Shown here piece after piece: positions 2,748 to 45,253 of a DNA stretch of 64,000 bases. Below the pieces are notes generated by a model that was not told where the DNA came from, made no database searches, and saw only the letters and a list, made by a program, of their open reading frames with translations. A program made the position numbers and the translations under genes. Source of the stretch: a virus; IMG/VR virus record IMGVR_UViG_3300028841_000107. One strand, 5' to 3'. Within the stretch, counting starts at the first letter, position 1. Each line of letters opens with the position of its first letter.

Positions 2748-3803
2748 ATGCCCTACAGCCCCCCGCACAACCCGGTCGGCAACGGCGGCACCGGCACGTC
2801 TCTCGGCGGGAACAACCCATACCCGCCGCCGGACCAGTACAACCCCTTCGTCGTCAATCCCAGCGGAGGCTCCGCCCAGATCGGGGGCGGCGTCCCCGGA
2901 GTAGGCGGCTATCGCCCACCGGACCACCACGTCAGCAACGGTGGGCACGGCCAGACCGTCTACCACGGGGCGCAGGGGAGCAGCGGCGGCGGTTCGTACG
3001 GGAGCGCCGGGAGCGCAGTGATGGGCCCGGCGGCTCCTGGCGGCGCGTCCGCCGCGTGGCGGGCCCAGCGCGCCGCCGCCATCGCCAAGAGGCGCGAGGG
3101 GCTCAAGCCAGAAGACATGGCCGGCTTCCGAACCGACGCCGAGGGGAGGCGGTACTGGTATCAGCCCGGGCTCGACGCCGCGGCGGCGAACAACCCGATC
3201 AACAAAGAGTGGGCCTACGGGCTCGCGAATCCGACGGGCGCGTTCGCAACCAGGCAGTTCGCGGGGCAGGGTCCGGCCCCGTTCCGGGCCTACCTCGCCC
3301 CACCCCCAGCGGCACCTCCTGCAGGGGGCGGTGGAGGCGGGCAGGGCCCGGGCCTTCACTCGGTCGTGGACACCCCCTCGACGCACCCGTACCAGCCGCC
3401 AGCCCCCGGTAGCGGGACGAGCGCGACGCCCTCCCCGACGGGTGGCGGCTCGGTCCCGGCACAGCCCGGGCAGCAGCAGGTGATGGCGGCCCAGCCGCGG
3501 TACTTCCCGATCGGGCAGTCCACCCCGGGCTTCGGCGGGGCCTCGACGCCGCTGCAGGTGGCCGGGATGCCTGGACCCGGAGGCGGGCAGGGCGGGAAGC
3601 CGGCGGGCCAGCCGGGCTTCGACCCGGCGACGGCACCGACCTCGGCCGCGGCGAAGCAGCAGGGCTCCGCCTACCAGGCCCGTCAGAGCACGGCGCAGCG
3701 GCAGCAGCAGACGAACCAGGCCCTCGCGCAACCAGGGGGGGCGAACCCCTACAATCGACGCTACACGCCGGCCAACCCGTATCAGCCGACGACGCGGTAC
3801 TGA
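2748..3803 (+). CDS. Gly/Pro/Gln/Ala-rich low-complexity protein, 351 aa (internal virion/ejection candidate)
   Basis: GGAGGA SD upstream of ATG 2748. Contains tracts such as PPAAPPAGGGGGGQGPG and QQQ runs. The 726-aa antisense ORF 2724..4904 is Arg/Pro-rich shadow. Confidence 0.7.
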   Translation: MPYSPPHNPVGNGGTGTSLGGNNPYPPPDQYNPFVVNPSGGSAQIGGGVPGVGGYRPPDHHVSNGGHGQTVYHGAQGSSGGGSYGSAGSAVMGPAAPGGASAAWRAQRAAAIAKRREGLKPEDMAGFRTDAEGRRYWYQPGLDAAAANNPINKEWAYGLANPTGAFATRQFAGQGPAPFRAYLAPPPAAPPAGGGGGGQGPGLHSVVDTPSTHPYQPPAPGSGTSATPSPTGGGSVPAQPGQQQVMAAQPRYFPIGQSTPGFGGASTPLQVAGMPGPGGGQGGKPAGQPGFDPATAPTSAAAKQQGSAYQARQSTAQRQQQTNQALAQPGGANPYNRRYTPANPYQPTTRY

Positions 3804-3812
3804 GGAGGCACT

Positions 3813-4550
3813 ATGGGATTCGACACGAGCGGTGGTGGCGGCGAGGGCGGCGGCGGGTCGATCTTCGACGACCCCCAGTTCATGCAGAACCTCCAGGGCG
3901 TCCTGGCGCAGCAGCCGCAGGGCGACGGGTATACCCAGGAGGCCGTCTACCGGAAGAAGCGGTTCATGGACAGGGGCTACGACCCGGACTTCGGCGACCC
4001 GCGGCGCGGGCAGGGGATCGGTGGCGGCGGGGCGGTATCCGCGCCCGACGGCAGCGTCTCCTACCAGGGTGGCGCGACCTCGCCCTTCGAGGTGGGCCCG
4101 TCGAGCGGCGCTCCGAACACGCTGCACGCGGCGCAGCAGCCCGGCGGAGGTGGCTATGGTCGCTTCCCCGAGATGGGCATGATGGGCGGCGGAGACCTCC
4201 GTGGCGGTGGCGGCGGGCGGGCACGCGGTGGCGGCTGGTACGGCGGCTACGGCAACGCCCAGGGCGGCGGGCAGCAGCAGTGGTATCGACCGCAGGGCTC
4301 CGACCGACCGGCCCCGGACAACCCGGGAGCGGCCTACGACGCCGGCCCGGGGCGGGCGGAGGCTCGCGATGAGGCAGCGGGGATGCCGCATGGCGGGCCC
4401 GCCCCGTCCCGCTGGCAGATGCCGCCCGGCGGCGCCTACGGCCGACCGCAGCCCCGGCAGAGGCGCCGGTTCTACGGCAACACCGGGGCCATCCAGGGCC
4501 CGCAGGGGAGCCCCGGCGGAGCGCCGCAGGGCGGCGGGTACAACATCTAG
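3813..4550 (+). CDS. Gly-rich low-complexity protein, 245 aa
   Basis: GAGGAGG SD. N-terminus MGFDTSGGGGEGGGGS, repeated GGGG and RGGGG tracts, G/C-rich third positions. Confidence 0.7.
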   Translation: MGFDTSGGGGEGGGGSIFDDPQFMQNLQGVLAQQPQGDGYTQEAVYRKKRFMDRGYDPDFGDPRRGQGIGGGGAVSAPDGSVSYQGGATSPFEVGPSSGAPNTLHAAQQPGGGGYGRFPEMGMMGGGDLRGGGGGRARGGGWYGGYGNAQGGGQQQWYRPQGSDRPAPDNPGAAYDAGPGRAEARDEAAGMPHGGPAPSRWQMPPGGAYGRPQPRQRRRFYGNTGAIQGPQGSPGGAPQGGGYNI

Positions 4551-39638: not shown

Positions 39639-40658
39639 ATGTACTCCCCACTCTTCGCCGCGCTGTACCAGGGAAGCATGTCTGGGAAGTCGGACATGCT
39701 GCTCGTCTGGCCCTGCATCTTGGCCCACGCTGACCCTCGCGGAAACGTGGACCTACACCCTCGCGTGATCGCCGCACTCACCGGCCTGTCGCAGGACCGC
39801 GTGGACGCGGCCATCGCCGAGCTCGAGGCGGACGACCCGGAAAGTCGCACCATGGATCCTGTCTACGGCGGGAAGCGGATGGTCCGCCTTGACGAGACGC
39901 GTCGATGGGGATGGTTCGTCGTCAACCACCTGCTGTACAGGAAGATGGCGTCGCTCGGGGCCGTTCGGGCCCAGGCGGCAGAGCGGCAGGCGAGGAGGCG
40001 CGCCAGGGACAACGACGTCACGCCGGGTCACGGCATGTCACGCACCCGTCACGCACCCGTCACGGCTTTGTCACGCAAGGAAGAGGAGGAGGAAGAGGAG
40101 AAGGAATCTACCCCCCTACCCCCCTTGCAGGGGGGATTTGTTCTGGAGCCCGTGGATCCACCCGCGAAGAAGCCTAGGACGAAGAAGCCGAAAGCCGTCC
40201 CGCTTGTCCCTGCCCCCGGCTTCGAGGAGTTCTGGGCCGGGTTTCCTAGGAAGGAGGGGAAACAGCCGGCGATCGGGGTCTGGAACGAGATGAGCCCCGA
40301 GGATCGCAAGCTCGCTACAGCCGCTGCACCCCGATACGCTGCCCGCCGGGCCGGGCAAGACCCCACCGGGACCAAGATGCCGCAGGGATGGCTGAACGAG
40401 AGGCGCTTCGAGGACGAGGCTAACGGGCCAGTCCCTCTAACCGAGAAGCAGAAATCGCAGCAACCGACGGCCGCACAGGTCGCCGAGTGGGTCCGCATCG
40501 ACGCCATGAAGGCCCAGGAACGCGAGGAGACGCGAGCCGAGTACCGGGCAACGATTGACTCGCTGCCCCCGGAGAAACGCGAACGCCTGCTCAGGGTGAT
40601 CCTCCCGGTTACCGACCCTGAGTTCGCCGCAGAGCTTGCAGAGAAGGGATACCGATGA
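39639..40658 (+). CDS. Replication initiator/organiser-like protein, 339 aa
   Basis: GGAGGAAG SD. N-terminal wHTH-like region; C-terminal FEEFWAGFPRKEGKQPAIGVWNEM...GWLNERRFEDE motif I recall from phage replication-organiser accessory domains. The iteron array lies inside its linker-coding region, as in lambda O. Confidence 0.55.
   Translation: MYSPLFAALYQGSMSGKSDMLLVWPCILAHADPRGNVDLHPRVIAALTGLSQDRVDAAIAELEADDPESRTMDPVYGGKRMVRLDETRRWGWFVVNHLLYRKMASLGAVRAQAAERQARRRARDNDVTPGHGMSRTRHAPVTALSRKEEEEEEEKESTPLPPLQGGFVLEPVDPPAKKPRTKKPKAVPLVPAPGFEEFWAGFPRKEGKQPAIGVWNEMSPEDRKLATAAAPRYAARRAGQDPTGTKMPQGWLNERRFEDEANGPVPLTEKQKSQQPTAAQVAEWVRIDAMKAQEREETRAEYRATIDSLPPEKRERLLRVILPVTDPEFAAELAEKGYR
40018..40076 (+). 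repeat. Six GTCACG iterons inside the initiator gene (candidate ori core)
   Basis: GTCACG at 40018, 40028, 40038, 40049, 40060 and 40071 (spacing 10/10/11/11/11). Immediately followed by the purine tract AAGGAAGAGGAGGAGGAAGAGGAGAAGGAA (poly-Glu codons). Confidence 0.8.
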
Positions 40659-41059
40659 CGACGAACCCGTGGAAGACCCCGTTCGCCTGCGAGAAGTGCT
40701 CCGACCACCGAACCGTCATCAACAAGCTCCACAAGGCTGCGCCGTGCCCGGTCTGCGGCGGACGGAACGACGAGGTTTACGCGACCTTCCGGGCCGAGCG
40801 GTACAAGCCGCCGCAGCCAGAAGACATCGTCGCCGAGGTGGACCTGTCGGACGCCGAGTTCGTGGTCTACAACCAGATGAAGACGGAGCACCCGAACGCG
40901 CACAAGAGAACCCTCTTCGCGTGGATGGAGGCGCGGCGCTACGACCCGAGCAAGGACCCGGCGGTGCGGAGGCAGGTCGATCGCCTGCTCGCTGACTGGA
41001 AGACCCGGCAGGCCGCCTCCGCGGCCGAACGAGGGGAGAAGTGGGAGGCGGCCCCCTGA
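40655..41059 (+). CDS. Zinc-ribbon protein, 134 aa
   Basis: ATGA overlap at 40655. Contains CEKC...CPVCGG. The stop is 1 nt from the convergent terL stop. Confidence 0.6.
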   Translation: MTTNPWKTPFACEKCSDHRTVINKLHKAAPCPVCGGRNDEVYATFRAERYKPPQPEDIVAEVDLSDAEFVVYNQMKTEHPNAHKRTLFAWMEARRYDPSKDPAVRRQVDRLLADWKTRQAASAAERGEKWEAAP

Positions 41060-41060
41060 C

Positions 41061-43508
41061 CTACCTCCCGAACCTCCAGGGCCCCGCCACCCGCCCCCTC
41101 CCGGCCCCCCGACGCCGCCCCCCGTCCAGCGAGAACGGCTTGTCGCCGACCCCCCGGGCCTTCTCCCGTGCCATCAACTGCCGGATGAAGAGCTGGTTCA
41201 TGTCCTTCGGCTTCCCGTGGGTGTCCTCAAGCGCCTGCATCGCCCGGCCGACCGCCACCTCGAAGGGCGGGTTGCCGGTCCCCCACCGGTTCTGGATCAG
41301 GTAGCGCAGGGCGTCCGGGGCGTCGTCCCCGTCGATCTTCAGGACGTCGTCCGGGGCGTCCGGGTCCCGCTGTAGCTCCGGGATGGCCGCGATCAGGGCC
41401 GTGCAGCTCTTGTGGATCCGGAGCTGGCCGGCGCGGAGCATCTCGTACATGTGCACCCAGCCCGGGATCCGGCTGCTCCTGGCGTTCTGGGGCCACGGCA
41501 GGCCGTTGGCGGTCAGGACCCTGCCGAGCTGGTCGGCGATCGAGAACTCCTCCTTACGGAGCTCGTGGGCGTCGTGGGAGAGGTAGATGTTCGCGATCGA
41601 GGGACGCTCCGAGGGGGGCGTCAAGGCCACGATCGACTCCCCGAGCTTCTCCGGGGTCATCCTGGGGGCGACGAGCTCCCGGTAGACGGTCAGGGTCTCG
41701 GCCCGCTCGTCGGTCGCGCCCCACTCGACGGCGGAGTTGTGGGAGAAGCCCCAGTCGATGCCGATGTTCCGCTCGCACCAGGGGGGGGACTCGACCTTGG
41801 GCGAGAAGTCCACGTTGTTCTGGAGGTTCCAGCAATCGAAATACTGGCCGGCCACGAGGTCCCATGAGCCGTCGAGGTAGGCGGCCCGGAGCGCCTCGGG
41901 GAGGTTCCGGAGGTATTCCTCGTACTCCGGGTTTGCCTCCATCAAGAACGGGTTGTCGTAGACGCGGGCTGGAATGTACGCGAAGTGCTCTGGCACGTAT
42001 CCGGTCGCGGGCCACCCGTTGAACGGTCGCTTGTCGATCCACAGAGTCTTCGTCCAGACGTGCCCGATACCGCCCGGGTTCGTGGCCCCGGCCATGTTCG
42101 GCCTGCCGTTGACGTTCCGATTACGCGAGGTCAGGAAGACGAATTCGTCGAAGGTAAACTGTGTCTGCTCGTCAAAACCGCAGTTTTGTGATACAAACCC
42201 TCCCCGTGAAATGTAGTGAGAGACCTCTTCCACTCTTAGATCGAAAACTTCCACCTCACCCACTGGGGAAATATCGAAGGGGACGAGGCGGACGGCCCGC
42301 GACGAGACCTCGTGGGCCTTCGTGTAGGGGTGGCTATACCGTAACCTCTCGACAAGGGTATGTTCTGGAGTATTCGCCGGATCATCCAAGTTGTTCGGGG
42401 CTGAAGAAGCGGGTGCCGCAGCACAGGCTGGTGATGGAGTGCCTACTTGGCAGGCTGCTTCGGCCGGAAGAGGTAGTCCATCACGAGAATCACGTTCGTC
42501 ACGACAACCGACGTCGAAACCTGCGCCTGATGCCGAGCCGTTCAGCCCATACGCAGGAGCACGCAGAAGACCTGCGGGCGGCAAACCTGATCCAGCTGAC
42601 GGAGGCACAGGTACGGCGAGCGCTAAAAGGCAGGACAACGCTTCAGGCGGCCAAGCTTCTGGGCGTTCACCACATGACGCTTCGGACGCGGTTCGACCAT
42701 CTGCTGAAGAAGCGGCGAAGCCCAGGGGCAGGTTTCCCGCCCGAGTTTGTTGAGAAGGTACAGGCTCTTGCGATGGATCCGGACGTGACGACGACGGCAG
42801 CCCATCGGTTACTGGGGACGACGGCGATCCGGCTACGCGTGTGCCGGAAGCTGCACGGGATCGAGTGGTGTCGTCGCGCAGGAGTGAAGGGACTCCCGCC
42901 CATGCGCCCTCACCAGTTAAAAGGCTATGGTCTGAGCCGATGACTACGGAGAAGCCGCCGGCCCGCACGCGGTAACACTCGACCCGCCGTGGCGGCGGCG
43001 TAAGCGTTACGGCCCGTGGGCCCTTGAGGGTCGCTACGAGGTCACCGACGGCGATGTTCTCGATGGCCCTAAACGAGCCGTCGGACATCTCGATCTCGGT
43101 TCCACCTGCGACGCAGAACCCGTACTCGCCACCCTGGTACTTCATCAGATCGCGCTTCGTTTCCAAGTGGCCGAAGCGGAGCGTAGATCCGTTGAAGAAG
43201 GAGAGAATCCCATCCTGCTCGTTGTAGGTGGCGAGCTCGGGCGGCATCTCCGTTCGCATCTTTGAGATGTGGTTGTCCTCGAGCTCCTTCGAGGTTCTCC
43301 GGAGGATTAGGGCGGTCCATTTCGGTATGGCAAGGCACTGTGCGTAGGCTTCCCAGCGCAGCCAGACCGATTTTCCAGACCCCGCCGCGCCGCCCATTAG
43401 GCGATACCTGGCGACGGCCGTGTGGGCTGCGAGCTGGCGCTCCGTTGGCTTGTAGGGCAACCGGAAGTAGTTCGCGACTTCGGGCGTGACGATGTCCATC
43501 GGGGCCAT
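41061..43508 (-). CDS. terL: Terminase large subunit precursor, interrupted by an intein (mature about 504 aa)
   Basis: ATG 43508 (MAPMDIVTPE...). Walker A GGAAGSGKS. Walker B split as GGEYGF | intein | CGFDEQ. The C-extein has an RNase H-like IGIDWGFSHNSA region. The upstream extension of the 900-aa track ORF is Arg/Gly-rich. Confidence 0.85.
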   Translation of the reverse strand: MAPMDIVTPEVANYFRLPYKPTERQLAAHTAVARYRLMGGAAGSGKSVWLRWEAYAQCLAIPKWTALILRRTSKELEDNHISKMRTEMPPELATYNEQDGILSFFNGSTLRFGHLETKRDLMKYQGGEYGFCVAGGTEIEMSDGSFRAIENIAVGDLVATLKGPRAVTLTPPPRRVECYRVRAGGFSVVIGSDHSLLTGEGAWAGVPSLLRDDTTRSRAASGTRVAGSPSSPVTDGLPSSSRPDPSQEPVPSQQTRAGNLPLGFAASSADGRTASEASCGERPEAWPPEALSCLLALAVPVPPSAGSGLPPAGLLRAPAYGLNGSASGAGFDVGCRDERDSRDGLPLPAEAACQVGTPSPACAAAPASSAPNNLDDPANTPEHTLVERLRYSHPYTKAHEVSSRAVRLVPFDISPVGEVEVFDLRVEEVSHYISRGGFVSQNCGFDEQTQFTFDEFVFLTSRNRNVNGRPNMAGATNPGGIGHVWTKTLWIDKRPFNGWPATGYVPEHFAYIPARVYDNPFLMEANPEYEEYLRNLPEALRAAYLDGSWDLVAGQYFDCWNLQNNVDFSPKVESPPWCERNIGIDWGFSHNSAVEWGATDERAETLTVYRELVAPRMTPEKLGESIVALTPPSERPSIANIYLSHDAHELRKEEFSIADQLGRVLTANGLPWPQNARSSRIPGWVHMYEMLRAGQLRIHKSCTALIAAIPELQRDPDAPDDVLKIDGDDAPDALRYLIQNRWGTGNPPFEVAVGRAMQALEDTHGKPKDMNQLFIRQLMAREKARGVGDKPFSLDGGRRRGAGRGRVAGPWRFGR
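42161..42943 (+). CDS. HNH homing endonuclease with HTH tail, encoded antisense inside the terL intein (up to 260 aa; start uncertain)
   Basis: Reads GYVLEYSPDHP...VPQHRLVMECLLGRLLRPEEVVHHENHVRHDNRRRNLRLMPSRSAHTQEH (HNH_3 pattern), then TLQAAKLLGVHHMTLRTRF and TTAAHRLLGTTAIRLR HTH-like segments. In-frame GTG candidates at 42161, 42188 and 42206. Locally lower G+C. Confidence 0.8.
   Translation: MSARQNRSFVIQTLPVKCSERPLPLLDRKLPPHPLGKYRRGRGGRPATRPRGPSCRGGYTVTSRQGYVLEYSPDHPSCSGLKKRVPQHRLVMECLLGRLLRPEEVVHHENHVRHDNRRRNLRLMPSRSAHTQEHAEDLRAANLIQLTEAQVRRALKGRTTLQAAKLLGVHHMTLRTRFDHLLKKRRSPGAGFPPEFVEKVQALAMDPDVTTTAAHRLLGTTAIRLRVCRKLHGIEWCRRAGVKGLPPMRPHQLKGYGLSR
42183..43115 (-). mobile_element. Intein, 311 codons, in terL at Walker B
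   Basis: Starts with Cys (codon 43115..43113): CVAGGTEIEMSDGSF (block A) and VVIGSDHSLLT (block B-like). Ends EVEVFDLRVEEVSHYISRGGFVSQN (Asn codon 42185..42183) followed by +1 Cys. The interior ~200 codons are S/P/A-rich with no endonuclease motif in this frame. Confidence 0.8.
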
Positions 43509-43526
43509 TATGCCGCGCGAATTTTC

Positions 43527-43555
43527 TTGACCGCCCAACCCGGCCCCGATACGAT
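43527..43555 (+). promoter_or_regulatory. Sigma-70-like promoter candidate, leaderless configuration
   Basis: TTGACC (43527-43532), 17-nt spacer, TACGAT (43550-43555). ATG 43563 lies 7 nt downstream and there is no SD. Confidence 0.4.
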
Positions 43556-43562
43556 TTGACAG

Positions 43563-43811
43563 ATGCGGCCCCGCCCCACGACCCCACCGACGAGTCCCAC
43601 CCCGTCCGGGTCCACAGACGCCCCGCCGAAGAACCCGGGGGCTTCGGCCCCCGGCCCTACCCTCATCGACCTGACGCAGCCGATCGTGCTGGAGATCACG
43701 GCGGAGTTCTCGGATACCGTCGAGGGACAGGCCGCCGCCGAGGCGCTGGGCCGAGAGCTGCAAAAGGCGAAGCGGGCCCGCGAGTGCGGCGGGATCCGGA
43801 GGCTCAAGTGA
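43563..43811 (+). CDS. Hypothetical protein, 82 aa (Pro/Thr-rich N-terminus)
   Basis: ATG 43563. The stop is in a GTGA overlap with the next gene, which supports this frame. Confidence 0.45.
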   Translation: MRPRPTTPPTSPTPSGSTDAPPKNPGASAPGPTLIDLTQPIVLEITAEFSDTVEGQAAAEALGRELQKAKRARECGGIRRLK

Positions 43812-44095
43812 TTGCCGGCTTCGGCACAGCCGGCTGCGACGTGGCGAGCAACGGGCAGTACGCGCGTCGCGAGGATATCGAGGCGTTCAAGCGGCAGGCC
43901 ACCGACTTCCCTACCCAGAGCCCCTACGTCGGGGAGTTGTCGAAGTGGGTCGTTTCCGTCCGCCCGATCGTGTCCGAAGCCGTGAAGGCCACCGCCGTGA
44001 AGAAGCCGGTGCCGCAGGTGATCCACTGCGGCTACTGCGGAGATCGTCTGGCGAGCCGGGTGTGCGTGGAGTGCGGCGAGAGGCTACTCACTTGA
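43808..44095 (+). CDS. Hypothetical protein with C-terminal zinc ribbon, 95 aa
   Basis: GTGA overlap. Reads ...VIHCGYCGDRLASRVCVECGERL. Confidence 0.55.
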   Translation: MIAGFGTAGCDVASNGQYARREDIEAFKRQATDFPTQSPYVGELSKWVVSVRPIVSEAVKATAVKKPVPQVIHCGYCGDRLASRVCVECGERLLT

Positions 44096-44265
44096 ACGGC
44101 GGCCCGCTGTCCCAGGAAGAGCGCGTGGCGCTCCGTACCGCCGTCCTCCTCCTCGACGGCATCCCGCCGGAGACCGGCGAGCGTGTCGCGGCCTTCGAGG
44201 ATCGAATCCGGGCAACCTCCGACGACCCAGAGAGGGACGAATGGGAACGAAAGCATCGCGGTTGA
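44092..44265 (+). CDS. Hypothetical protein, 57 aa
   Basis: TTG 44092 in a TTGA overlap; tail of track ORF 43945..44265. Confidence 0.35.
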   Translation: MNGGPLSQEERVALRTAVLLLDGIPPETGERVAAFEDRIRATSDDPERDEWERKHRG

Positions 44266-44462
44266 TGAAGATCGTGCGCTCGGCCGCGTTTGGCCCGGAT
44301 CCGGTTGCCGGGCTCACCGACCAGCAGGCGCGCGTTCTCTACTCAGCACGGGCGCAGGCGATGGAATGGGGCAAGCTCTGGCGCTTTACCGGTATCTACC
44401 CGGAGGCGCACCGAGACGGTGGGCCAGAGCCCGGCCGTCGCCGCGGGGCACTCGCGCGATGA
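44241..44462 (+). CDS. Hypothetical protein, 73 aa
   Basis: AGAGGGA before ATG 44241. Stop in an ATGA overlap with the exonuclease gene. Confidence 0.45.
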   Translation: MGTKASRLMKIVRSAAFGPDPVAGLTDQQARVLYSARAQAMEWGKLWRFTGIYPEAHRDGGPEPGRRRGALAR

Positions 44463-45253
44463 CCCCTCGCTTCCACCAGAGCACGGCCAACACCCTGCTC
44501 ACCCTGTCGCCGTACCACGCCTGGTACTTCCACCCGGACCTTGGCGGGCACGAGAAGAAGGGGACCGCGGCAACGGTACGAGGGAACATCCTCGATCGGA
44601 TGCTCTTCGGCGTCGGGCCCGAGATCGCGGTGCTGGACTTCGGCGACTTCAAGTCCAAGGCGGCGCAGGCGGCCCGCGACGACGCCGAGGCCGCCGGGAA
44701 GCTGGTCGTGCTGCTGGAGACCTACGAGAAGCACCGGCTGTTCGTGGAGGCGGTGAACTCGCAGCTCCTACACGACCACGGGATCAGGCTGTCGGGGCAG
44801 AGCCAGGTCGAGCTCGAATGGGACTCCCCACACGGGGTCACGTGCGCCGGCCGCCTGGACCATCTCCTGCTCGACCCGAAGCTCAGAATCCTTGATCTCA
44901 AGACGTGCCAGAGCGCCTCGGAAGACGCGGTCACGCAGTCCATAGTGAAGTACGGCTACCACGTCCAGCATGCCGCCTACACCGAGGCGGCCCGGGTGTT
45001 GTTCGAGGACGAGCCCCAGATGGACTTCATCTTCGCCGAGAGCAACGAGCCGTTTCGGATCCGGCTGGCCCCGCTGGCCGGCACGATGAAAAGCCTCGGC
45101 GAGCACCAGTGGGCCCGCGCGTGCCGCATCTGGAAGGAGTGTCTGGATACGAACCGCTGGCCGGCGTACCCGGTCACCCGCATCGAGGCGAAGCCGTGGC
45201 ACCTGGCGCAGGCCGTCGAGGACGGGGACGAGGCGATGGACATCCATGGCTGA
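44459..45253 (+). CDS. PD-(D/E)xK recombination exonuclease (RecE/DUF3799-like), 264 aa
   Basis: Reads AGRLDHLLLDPKLRILDLKTCQSA...IVKYGYHVQHAAYTEAA, the D...D-x-K...Q..Y pattern of phage Cas4/RecE-type exonucleases. Adjacent to the Sak4-like ATPase. Confidence 0.7.
   Translation: MTPRFHQSTANTLLTLSPYHAWYFHPDLGGHEKKGTAATVRGNILDRMLFGVGPEIAVLDFGDFKSKAAQAARDDAEAAGKLVVLLETYEKHRLFVEAVNSQLLHDHGIRLSGQSQVELEWDSPHGVTCAGRLDHLLLDPKLRILDLKTCQSASEDAVTQSIVKYGYHVQHAAYTEAARVLFEDEPQMDFIFAESNEPFRIRLAPLAGTMKSLGEHQWARACRIWKECLDTNRWPAYPVTRIEAKPWHLAQAVEDGDEAMDIHG

Follow-up and report, generated by a model that had tools for sequence, protein, structure and literature searches.

In a 64,000-nucleotide stretch of viral DNA (IMG/VR virus record IMGVR_UViG_3300028841_000107; the whole stretch is called the window here), we found that terL, the gene for the large terminase subunit, carries an in-frame insert of 311 codons, and that the opposite strand of this insert carries a gene for an HNH homing-endonuclease-like protein. 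We read the locus as an intein placed before the Walker B strand of TerL and accompanied by a separate homing endonuclease gene on the other strand; as a structural and evolutionary interpretation, we give this a probability of about 0.85. An earlier examination of the letters alone (the sequence-only reading) had proposed the same composite, pairing a mini-intein-like splicing domain with an antisense homing endonuclease gene, and splicing in silico, profile searches, codon shuffling, and a survey of relatives all agree with it.

An uninterrupted minus-strand open reading frame (ORF) spans 41061..43763, and terL probably starts within it at the ATG at 43508 or at the ATG at 43499; we take the precursor ORF as 41061..43508 (stop codon 41061-41063). 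Its product matches phage large terminases as two pieces, one on either side of the insert. The N-extein (43116..43508, minus strand) contains the Walker A sequence GAAGSGKS, ends in ...KYQGGEYGF, and aligns to the insert-free proteins P0001-P0008 (P-numbers denote database proteins, and L-numbers denote related loci that were fetched). The C-extein (41061..42182, minus strand) begins with the +1 Cys (42180-42182), which is followed by the Walker B sequence GFDE, with D and E invariant in the TerL alignment. Between the two exteins lies the intein (42183..43115, minus strand), which is class-1-like and runs from Cys1 to Asn311, directly before the +1 Cys. The borders that had been placed between ...KYQGGEYGF and CGFDEQTQF are exact, and the splicing features listed with them (block A, a B-like block, blocks F/G with a penultimate Gln, and the +1 Cys) all lie where the sequence-only reading had put them. 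Block A (CVAGGTEIEMSDG; 43077..43115, with Cys1 at 43113-43115) aligns to the N terminus of PI-SceI; C1, V2, T6, and M10 are conserved in the family alignment, and Cys1 is invariant in sets of 10 and 15 family members. In block B (VVIGSDHSLLT; 42915..42947), His63 and L66 are invariant, as are H262, P263, and Y264 of the motif HPYT (42321..42332). Blocks F/G (EVEVFDLRVEEVSHYISRGGFVSQN; 42183..42257) end in the terminal Asn (42183-42185); D292, V295, I302, and N311 are invariant there, and the Asp and His of block F are conserved. The +1 residue is Cys in the window and Cys, Ser, or Thr across the family.

Relatives without the insert confirm these borders. P0001-P0008 are 497 to 500 residues long and 74 to 88% identical to the window TerL, and the closest of them, P0001 (88%), reads ...KYQGGEYGFCGFDEQTQF, which is exactly the product of splicing in silico, with the junction ...EYGF/CGFDE. 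The same holds for DNA: the empty allele in L007 matches the spliced gene at 84% identity over its full length and has a precise junction (...GGGTTC/TGCGGT...), its insert-free site reading TATGGTTTC up to the junction and TGCGGTTTTGAT beyond it. Joining the exteins also restores the domain match. The in silico spliced TerL (501 residues) scores 33.9 bits with Terminase_6N (cut-off 22) over residues 35-244, contiguous across the junction, versus just 17.1 bits for the unspliced protein. A profile built from the N-terminal (about 72 residues) and C-terminal (about 50 residues) splicing parts of 15 family members matches the solved inteins gp41-1 (E=1.3e-7, columns 14-114) and PI-SceI (E=1.5e-6), as well as the DnaB, RecA, and DnaX mini-inteins, and 13 of the 15 members match Pfam Hom_end_hint or Vint. 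A scan of viral contigs with the whole window intein found no relative, and the profile of the splicing halves alone succeeded. Similarly, a 10-member alignment of the intein found nothing at E<=1e-5 in a large protein collection, probably because low-complexity words from the interior flooded the candidates. Judged by its sequence features, the insert is thus a class-1-type intein just before the Walker B of a phage large terminase.

The plus-strand ORF at 42161..42943 (260 codons, GTG start at 42161) lies wholly within the terL ORF. It had been singled out as an HNH enzyme, and it scores above the cut-off of Pfam HNH_3 (29.2 versus 24.8 bits) and matches PHROGs HNH endonuclease families to E=4.5e-16. 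The extent of the Pfam match defines the catalytic core (...HRLVMECLLGRLLRPEEVVHHENHVRHDNRRRNLRL...; 42422..42544, residues 88-128). H107, H108, N116, N120, and H130 are invariant in an alignment of 71 sequences, and all are present in the window copy. Two helical modules resembling helix-turn-helix (HTH) DNA-binding domains occupy 42599..42856 (residues ~147-232). The two HTH-like segments claimed earlier are borne out by an AlphaFold2 model made from the 71-sequence alignment (mean predicted local distance difference test score [pLDDT] of 86.8), in which the HNH core is followed by two helical modules with helices at 148-177 and 194-232 (pLDDT >90); the corresponding Pfam HTH matches are weak (HTH_Tnp_ISL3, E=0.0016). 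Among known structures, the model resembles HTH domains and I-HmuI. Database searching with the HNH protein yielded 87 homologues; its exact 260-residue sequence is called as a gene (P0025) in public assemblies of the same phage contig (about 70 kb), and the HNH protein of L142, a 1,066-bp metagenomic relative, is 86% identical and of equal length.

Comparison of the window with L142 allowed us to ask which strand is conserved where, since position 3 of an HNH codon lies opposite position 2 of a terL codon and position 2 of an HNH codon lies opposite position 3 of a terL codon. In the C-extein, substitutions at HNH codon positions 1/2/3 number 3/13/0 (p=1.7e-4), and 13 of the 16 fall at terL codon position 3. 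The pattern becomes 0/4/9 in the C-terminal part of the intein (p=0.009) and 23/20/74 in the interior (p=5.5e-11), and it returns to 10/30/2 in the N-terminal part of the intein (p=3.5e-7) and 1/4/0 in the N-extein (p=0.074). In the interior, the Nei-Gojobori ratio of nonsynonymous to synonymous substitution (dN/dS) is 0.115 for the HNH frame (180 codons) versus 2.4 for the terL frame; in the N-terminal part of the intein, the terL frame has a dN/dS of 0.055. Together, the substitution phases and dN/dS values indicate that, at either border of the nuclease gene, selection changes over to the coding phase of the opposite strand. For the C-terminal splicing segment (42183-42345), dN/dS is 0.149 in the HNH frame and 1.49 in the terL frame, from 13 differences only, which are too few to weigh. 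The excess of terL-frame substitutions in this region of L142 resembled possible decay of the intein, but other intact-looking members share the VAGAS/VEGAS variants, and only 13 substitutions are involved. An independent lineage (26 loci with 345-residue inteins) shows the same phase switch. Between more distantly related loci, it is the HNH frame of the interior, and not the host frame, that is conserved in 36 of 36 pairs, with local BLOSUM62 scores for the interior of 111 to 856 for the HNH protein and 23 to 300 for the host frame. This pattern of conservation indicates that the HNH ORF is a real gene under purifying selection.

The values for the ends of the insert also bear on whether it could be an RNA-level element, namely, a group I or group II intron with an antisense endonuclease gene. 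Antisense endonuclease genes do occur in some group I introns. Against this stand the protein-level conservation of the ends (the terL-frame dN/dS of 0.055) and their match to solved inteins, the length of the insert (in frame and an exact multiple of three), and the lack of any Rfam match at E<=1 within 41000-44000. We give an intron almost no credence.

The terL frame across the nuclease gene contains no stop codon. After synonymous permutation of the HNH ORF, the terL register contains 6.3 stops on average; it is open in 0.015% of 20,000 such permutations and in 0.04% of codon-order shuffles; the remaining two antisense registers contain 7 and 11 stops. The same is true of 11 loci including the window (G+C content, 0.38-0.66), in which no stops are present versus 3 to 10 expected and the frame is open in at most a 0.015 fraction of shuffles. 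The suspicion that the open frame is selected rather than accidental, which had been voiced before any such count, is therefore well founded, and the shuffles indicate that the terL frame is kept open by selection. These numbers weigh heavily on a further alternative, in which terL has been fractured or split, or is a pseudogene, its halves being made separately (with trans-splicing) and its frame being open by accident. Public gene callers do annotate a C-terminal fragment of TerL and the HNH gene as separate genes, with no call for the N-terminal part, and fractured genes with a free-standing endonuclease between split-intein halves are known (PMC2677866). In the window, however, terL is a single stop-free ORF that would be open in only 0.015% of shuffles, and the host frame is likewise open in 69 of 69 related loci, including those with a G+C content of 0.38 to 0.45, where 10 stops are expected. 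We consider a broken terL very improbable.

The overlap of the two genes is real, as the sequence-only reading had claimed in describing about 0.78 kb of dual coding, but most of it is not shared constraint. The last codons of the HNH ORF and its stop codon overlap block B on the opposite strand, and its first codons are antisense to blocks F/G and the splice junction, as that reading had it, and also to 22 nucleotides of the C-extein. Between these ends, the interior of the intein in the terL frame (42346..42914, minus strand, ~190 codons) is stop-free, unconserved, and rich in Ser, Pro, Ala, and Gly; the low complexity noted before amounts to 53% of these four residues over the 186 examined. 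Constraint able to serve both proteins is confined to some 170 nucleotides (~42206-42345 and 42915-42943). As judged from its divergence, the terL frame of the ~570-nucleotide interior is merely kept open, and there are no two conserved proteins there. The shared constraint lies at the ends of the HNH gene: the bases of HPY(T) (42321-42332) also encode, on the plus strand, the HNH motif (C/Y)(R/K)GG ((C)RGG in the window), which is homologous to the intrinsic WKGG of free-standing HNH_3 relatives, and in one subfamily, an AGGAG preceding the HNH ATG is antisense to the intein segment VTPIG. An arrangement in which the HNH start codon is antisense to the His codon of block F was rejected because the register does not fit. 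G+C content, which had been seen to drop around 42170-42300, is 0.535 at 42100-42299 versus 0.65 to 0.72 in the terL exteins, and the G+C content at third codon positions of the host frame is 0.81 to 0.93 in the exteins, 0.79 in the N-terminal part of the intein, 0.45 in the interior, and 0.39 in the C-terminal part.

The element belongs to a large family. Scans with the HNH protein (viral, metagenome, and genome contigs and the contexts of database homologues) uncovered 16 further TerL Walker B loci arranged in this way, not counting repeated finds of one contig; loci named among these finds are L001, L010, L011, L013, L066, L067, L068, L073, L142, L145, and L159-L162. A scan of IMG/VR with the splicing-part profile then gave 168 relatives; 80 of them were retained, and in 74 of those both ends of the intein were detected. 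The HNH gene is present in 69 of these 74 loci, always antisense, always in the same register (a2), and always with the host frame open; the G+C content of these 69 loci ranges from 0.38 to 0.65. The intein always directly precedes the TerL Walker B strand, ...YQG.. being followed by the intein (C...N) and then by C/S/T..DE or ..EE, and TerL families that differ greatly share this site. Stages of loss are also represented. Four loci (L163-165 and L169) have mini-inteins of 147 to 151 residues, the nuclease core is lost and the HTH part kept in L177 and L193/L195, and the HNH gene of L010 is degenerate, having lost one catalytic His and the last His. A search of related phages for the empty terL allele, or for the intein without its HNH gene, had been suggested; the survey turned up both, the latter as mini-inteins, as well as copies in which the HNH gene has decayed. 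The HNH proteins reach 50 to 59% identity where the exteins no longer align, in line with transfer between hosts. The window HNH protein has no match at E<=1e-5 in any of 50,697 isolate phage records, where matches are limited to the splicing domains of other inteins and the HNH cores of free-standing genes.

This distribution speaks to the possibility that the HNH protein serves the phage, for example, in terminase-associated cutting of genome ends or as a nuclease directed against competing phages, its position in terL being secondary. Such a role has precedent in that HNH proteins are encoded beside terminase genes in many phages, according to PMC3592412, and nuclease genes often lie at phage exchange boundaries, according to PMC10055350. 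We nonetheless think it improbable, because neither the insert nor the HNH gene is present in relatives whose TerL is 74 to 88% identical, and because in the 74 loci the HNH gene never occurs without the intein halves and sits where endonucleases are inserted in the Hint fold. Decay to mini-inteins is what would be expected of a selfish element, and the I-HmuI-like combination of HNH_3 with HTH modules is the make-up of homing enzymes.

We therefore return to an intein partnered with an antisense homing endonuclease gene, for which the following course of events may be proposed. The terL mRNA would be translated straight through the insert, and the two Hint halves (N-terminal, ~70 residues; C-terminal, ~50 residues), joined by a ~190-residue unconserved and probably disordered linker, would splice the precursor to give a TerL of 501 to 504 residues with the junction seen in insert-free alleles. 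The plus strand would yield an I-HmuI-like HNH_3 nuclease with two HTH modules, which presumably nicks or cuts the insert-free terL alleles of coinfecting phages, and repair of the break would copy the intein and the nuclease gene together into the empty site. Since TerL is essential, only copies with a stop-free terL frame across the nuclease gene would survive, and this survival would explain both the open frame and the fixed antisense register. Protein splicing, transcription and translation of the HNH gene, its cleavage target, and homing are all steps that we infer from sequence; for splicing, the indirect signs are that the host gene is essential, that its open frame is selected, and that the splicing blocks are conserved.

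Several results weigh against the scheme. On the side of the intein, block B has the His63 of the TxxH motif without its usual Thr (the window reads GSDH), and the penultimate His of block G was found in no family member examined (it is Gln in the window). Inteins without a penultimate His are known to splice. The window intein taken alone scores 20.7 to 23.2 bits with Pfam Hint models, under the gathering score of 32.1, and an AlphaFold2 model of its 311 residues, built from a two-sequence alignment, has a pLDDT of 31. On the side of the nuclease, I-HmuI is the top neighbour in the PDB in a fold search (E=0.073, probability 0.75) and in a sequence-profile search (E=0.099, covering the HNH motif), and both matches are weak. 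HNH similarity is also partly correlated with extein similarity (Spearman 0.42), which suggests that inheritance is a mix of vertical descent and transfer, much of it vertical.

Expression of the HNH gene is the weakest link of the model. The ORF has no ATG start. The alternative GTG at 42206, homologous to the ATG at which relatives start, lacks a Shine-Dalgarno sequence; the GTG at 42161 is better placed but sits outside the intein, 22 nucleotides into the C-extein. The latter is preceded, at a distance of 5 nucleotides and within C-extein codons, by a Shine-Dalgarno-like GAAGGT (42150..42155, plus strand), and L142 has a stronger GAAGGAG at this position. A scan of 40500-44500 for promoters and terminators found no plus-strand promoter and nothing useful for HNH expression. 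Given that terL is the sole minus-strand gene in its neighbourhood, read-through from upstream plus-strand genes could supply the message. The situation in L159-L162 is the reverse, the HNH gene there being the only gene opposed to the late operon.

The lack of an ATG or of a clear ribosome-binding site at the homologous start, together with the His losses in L010 and the loss of the core in L177 and L193, is what one would cite for the view that the intein is fixed and the HNH gene no longer drives homing, whether as an inactive relic on the way to a mini-intein or as a protein that is expressed without a target. Relic status sits poorly with the window copy, in which none of the invariant catalytic residues has been lost, the reading frame is not truncated (an 86% identical homologue has the same length), and the dN/dS versus L142 is 0.115 over 180 codons. 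We regard it as having only a small chance of being correct and continue to favour a homing partnership between the intein and the antisense gene.

The sequence-only reading was mistaken in one respect. It knew of no intein with an antisense-encoded endonuclease, and antisense LAGLIDADG genes were in fact reported in inteins between 1998 and 2002 (Gorbalenya 1998; Gogarten 2002; the Synechocystis DnaX intein; all via bioRxiv 10.1101/2025.01.02.630785). In that 2025 preprint, Gosselin, Arsenault, and Gogarten describe antisense LAGLIDADG and VSR-like genes in actinobacteriophage inteins, including inteins in terL, and propose that inteins capture free-standing endonuclease genes. The likeness to our locus is close: an opposite-strand ORF lies between splicing blocks B and F of a contiguous intein, the host frame reads through it without a recognisable fold, and terL is among the hosts. 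The differences are that their nucleases are of the LAGLIDADG or VSR-like type whereas that of the window combines HNH_3 with HTH modules, that the window HNH ORF enters the conserved splicing blocks and 22 nucleotides of the extein, and that the family here is large (168 IMG/VR matches) and has no member in the isolate collection searched. In the preprint, HNH is listed as an in-frame domain only, with in-frame HNH inteins credited to Dalgaard et al. 1997; such inteins likewise pair an HNH-type nuclease with a Hint splicing domain in phage genes, but the nuclease is a domain of the intein polypeptide there and a separate opposite-strand protein here.

Two other known systems resemble the locus in part. 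The fractured genes of Dassa et al. 2009 (PMC2677866), from phage-like metagenomic DNA, likewise have a free-standing endonuclease gene at the point of an intein where endonucleases are inserted, with short coding overlaps between the nuclease gene and the intein part; their host gene, however, is in two ORFs and the nuclease is oriented with it, whereas the host here is unbroken and the nuclease antisense. I-HmuI (PDB 1u3e), from Bacillus phage group I introns, shares the order of an HNH core followed by helical DNA-binding modules, but the similarity is weak and I-HmuI is intron encoded and in sense orientation. Full-text literature searches returned no report of an antisense HNH gene inside an intein. 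The architecture is therefore already known for LAGLIDADG and VSR-like genes, and the HNH_3 version is new, in a family that apparently has not yet been described. The present analysis adds that the family is large and absent from cultured phages, and that its signature of selection is unusually clean.

A stronger statement can be offered tentatively, at a little under even odds. It is that these loci form a large undescribed family of terminase Walker B inteins in which the HNH_3 gene is always separate, antisense, and in one register; that the ribosome-binding site, start codon, and N terminus of the nuclease are written into conserved splicing blocks (KGG/HPY and AGGAG/VTPIG); and that in the lineage of the window the gene reaches into the extein. 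If this is true, the family would be the best natural system so far for partnerships between inteins and endonucleases that arise by capture of free-standing genes. It would allow genuine two-strand dual coding to be studied, and one could ask whether antisense transcription couples the nuclease to terL expression. For the origin of mobile inteins, it offers a clean and widely replicated example of how such elements may arise, by capture of a free-standing endonuclease gene within a splicing domain, in which the empty site, the full element, the decayed nuclease, and the mini-intein are all present. For overlapping frames, it sets selection on amino acids on one strand against a mere ban on stop codons on the other, in a form that is measurable and that switches at exact borders. 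Tools could also come of it, namely, a splicing domain with an arbitrary linker of ~190 residues and a compact candidate site-specific nuclease.

As to the surroundings, terL is the sole minus-strand gene amid plus-strand neighbours in the called 6.8-kb stretch (window 39639-45253; L143), and consequently the antisense HNH gene points the same way as its neighbours in the window phage. The plus-strand ORF upstream stops at 41059, two bases from the terL stop codon. The inverted terL is also seen in the insert-free relatives L007/L008. Public gene calls for the window (41061-43508) and for L143, L144, and L159-L162 report the C-terminal TerL fragment and the HNH gene and omit the N-terminal TerL; because callers split terL-intein loci in this way, essential phage genes are mis-annotated in metagenomes. 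The TerL precursor of the window was not recovered by its own search of a collection of 5.8 billion proteins, in which the HNH ORF is present.

A single TerL in L011 (2203-5979, minus strand) has two inteins: the one in its Walker A loop is of the in-frame LAGLIDADG type, and the one before Walker B is the antisense-HNH intein. In L160 (1-1150, minus strand), the adjacent portal gene (981 residues, running off the locus) has Pfam Intein_splicing matches, which suggests that inteins may occur in both portal and terminase. L145 (JAAKFP010000329.1), a 2.9-kb contig in a "Chlamydiae" metagenome-assembled genome, is a phage terL with the intein and the HNH gene; its presence there is probably a binning artefact or a prophage fragment.

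Nested HNH_3 genes also occur in other hosts. Unrelated inteins with an antisense HNH_3 gene are found in the P-loop of a 1087-residue terminase-like protein (L004:1557-4820, minus strand; HNH_3 at 3572-4309, plus strand) and in the P-loop of a clamp-loader/DnaX-like AAA+ protein (L081:2395-4233, minus strand; HNH_3 at 3294-3995, plus strand). Both use the same codon register as the window, but with the HTH part first and the HNH part last. In SNF2-type helicase genes (L039, L095, L105, L107, L131, and L155), HNH_3 inteins at a DEMG/C...HN/CGK site are in frame. Yet another arrangement is seen in long DNA methyltransferase ORFs (DPPY...), inside which a zinc-finger HNH_3 ORF of 167 to 179 residues lies on the same strand in the +2 frame (L101:3312-3812, L052:1778-2314, L123:3303-3812, and L106:1026-1526; by span analysis, also L044, L047, L048, L058, L059, L099, L102-L104, L109, L111, L112, L119, and L124). 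No intein blocks were found at the borders of these methyltransferase-nested ORFs, and the open host frame reads as S/T/A-rich low complexity between conserved methyltransferase segments. This looks like an endonuclease gene lodged out of frame in a loop of the host protein without a splicing element. Taken with the SNF2 and terL cases, it indicates that, depending on the host, members of the HNH_3 family are found in frame, out of frame, or antisense.

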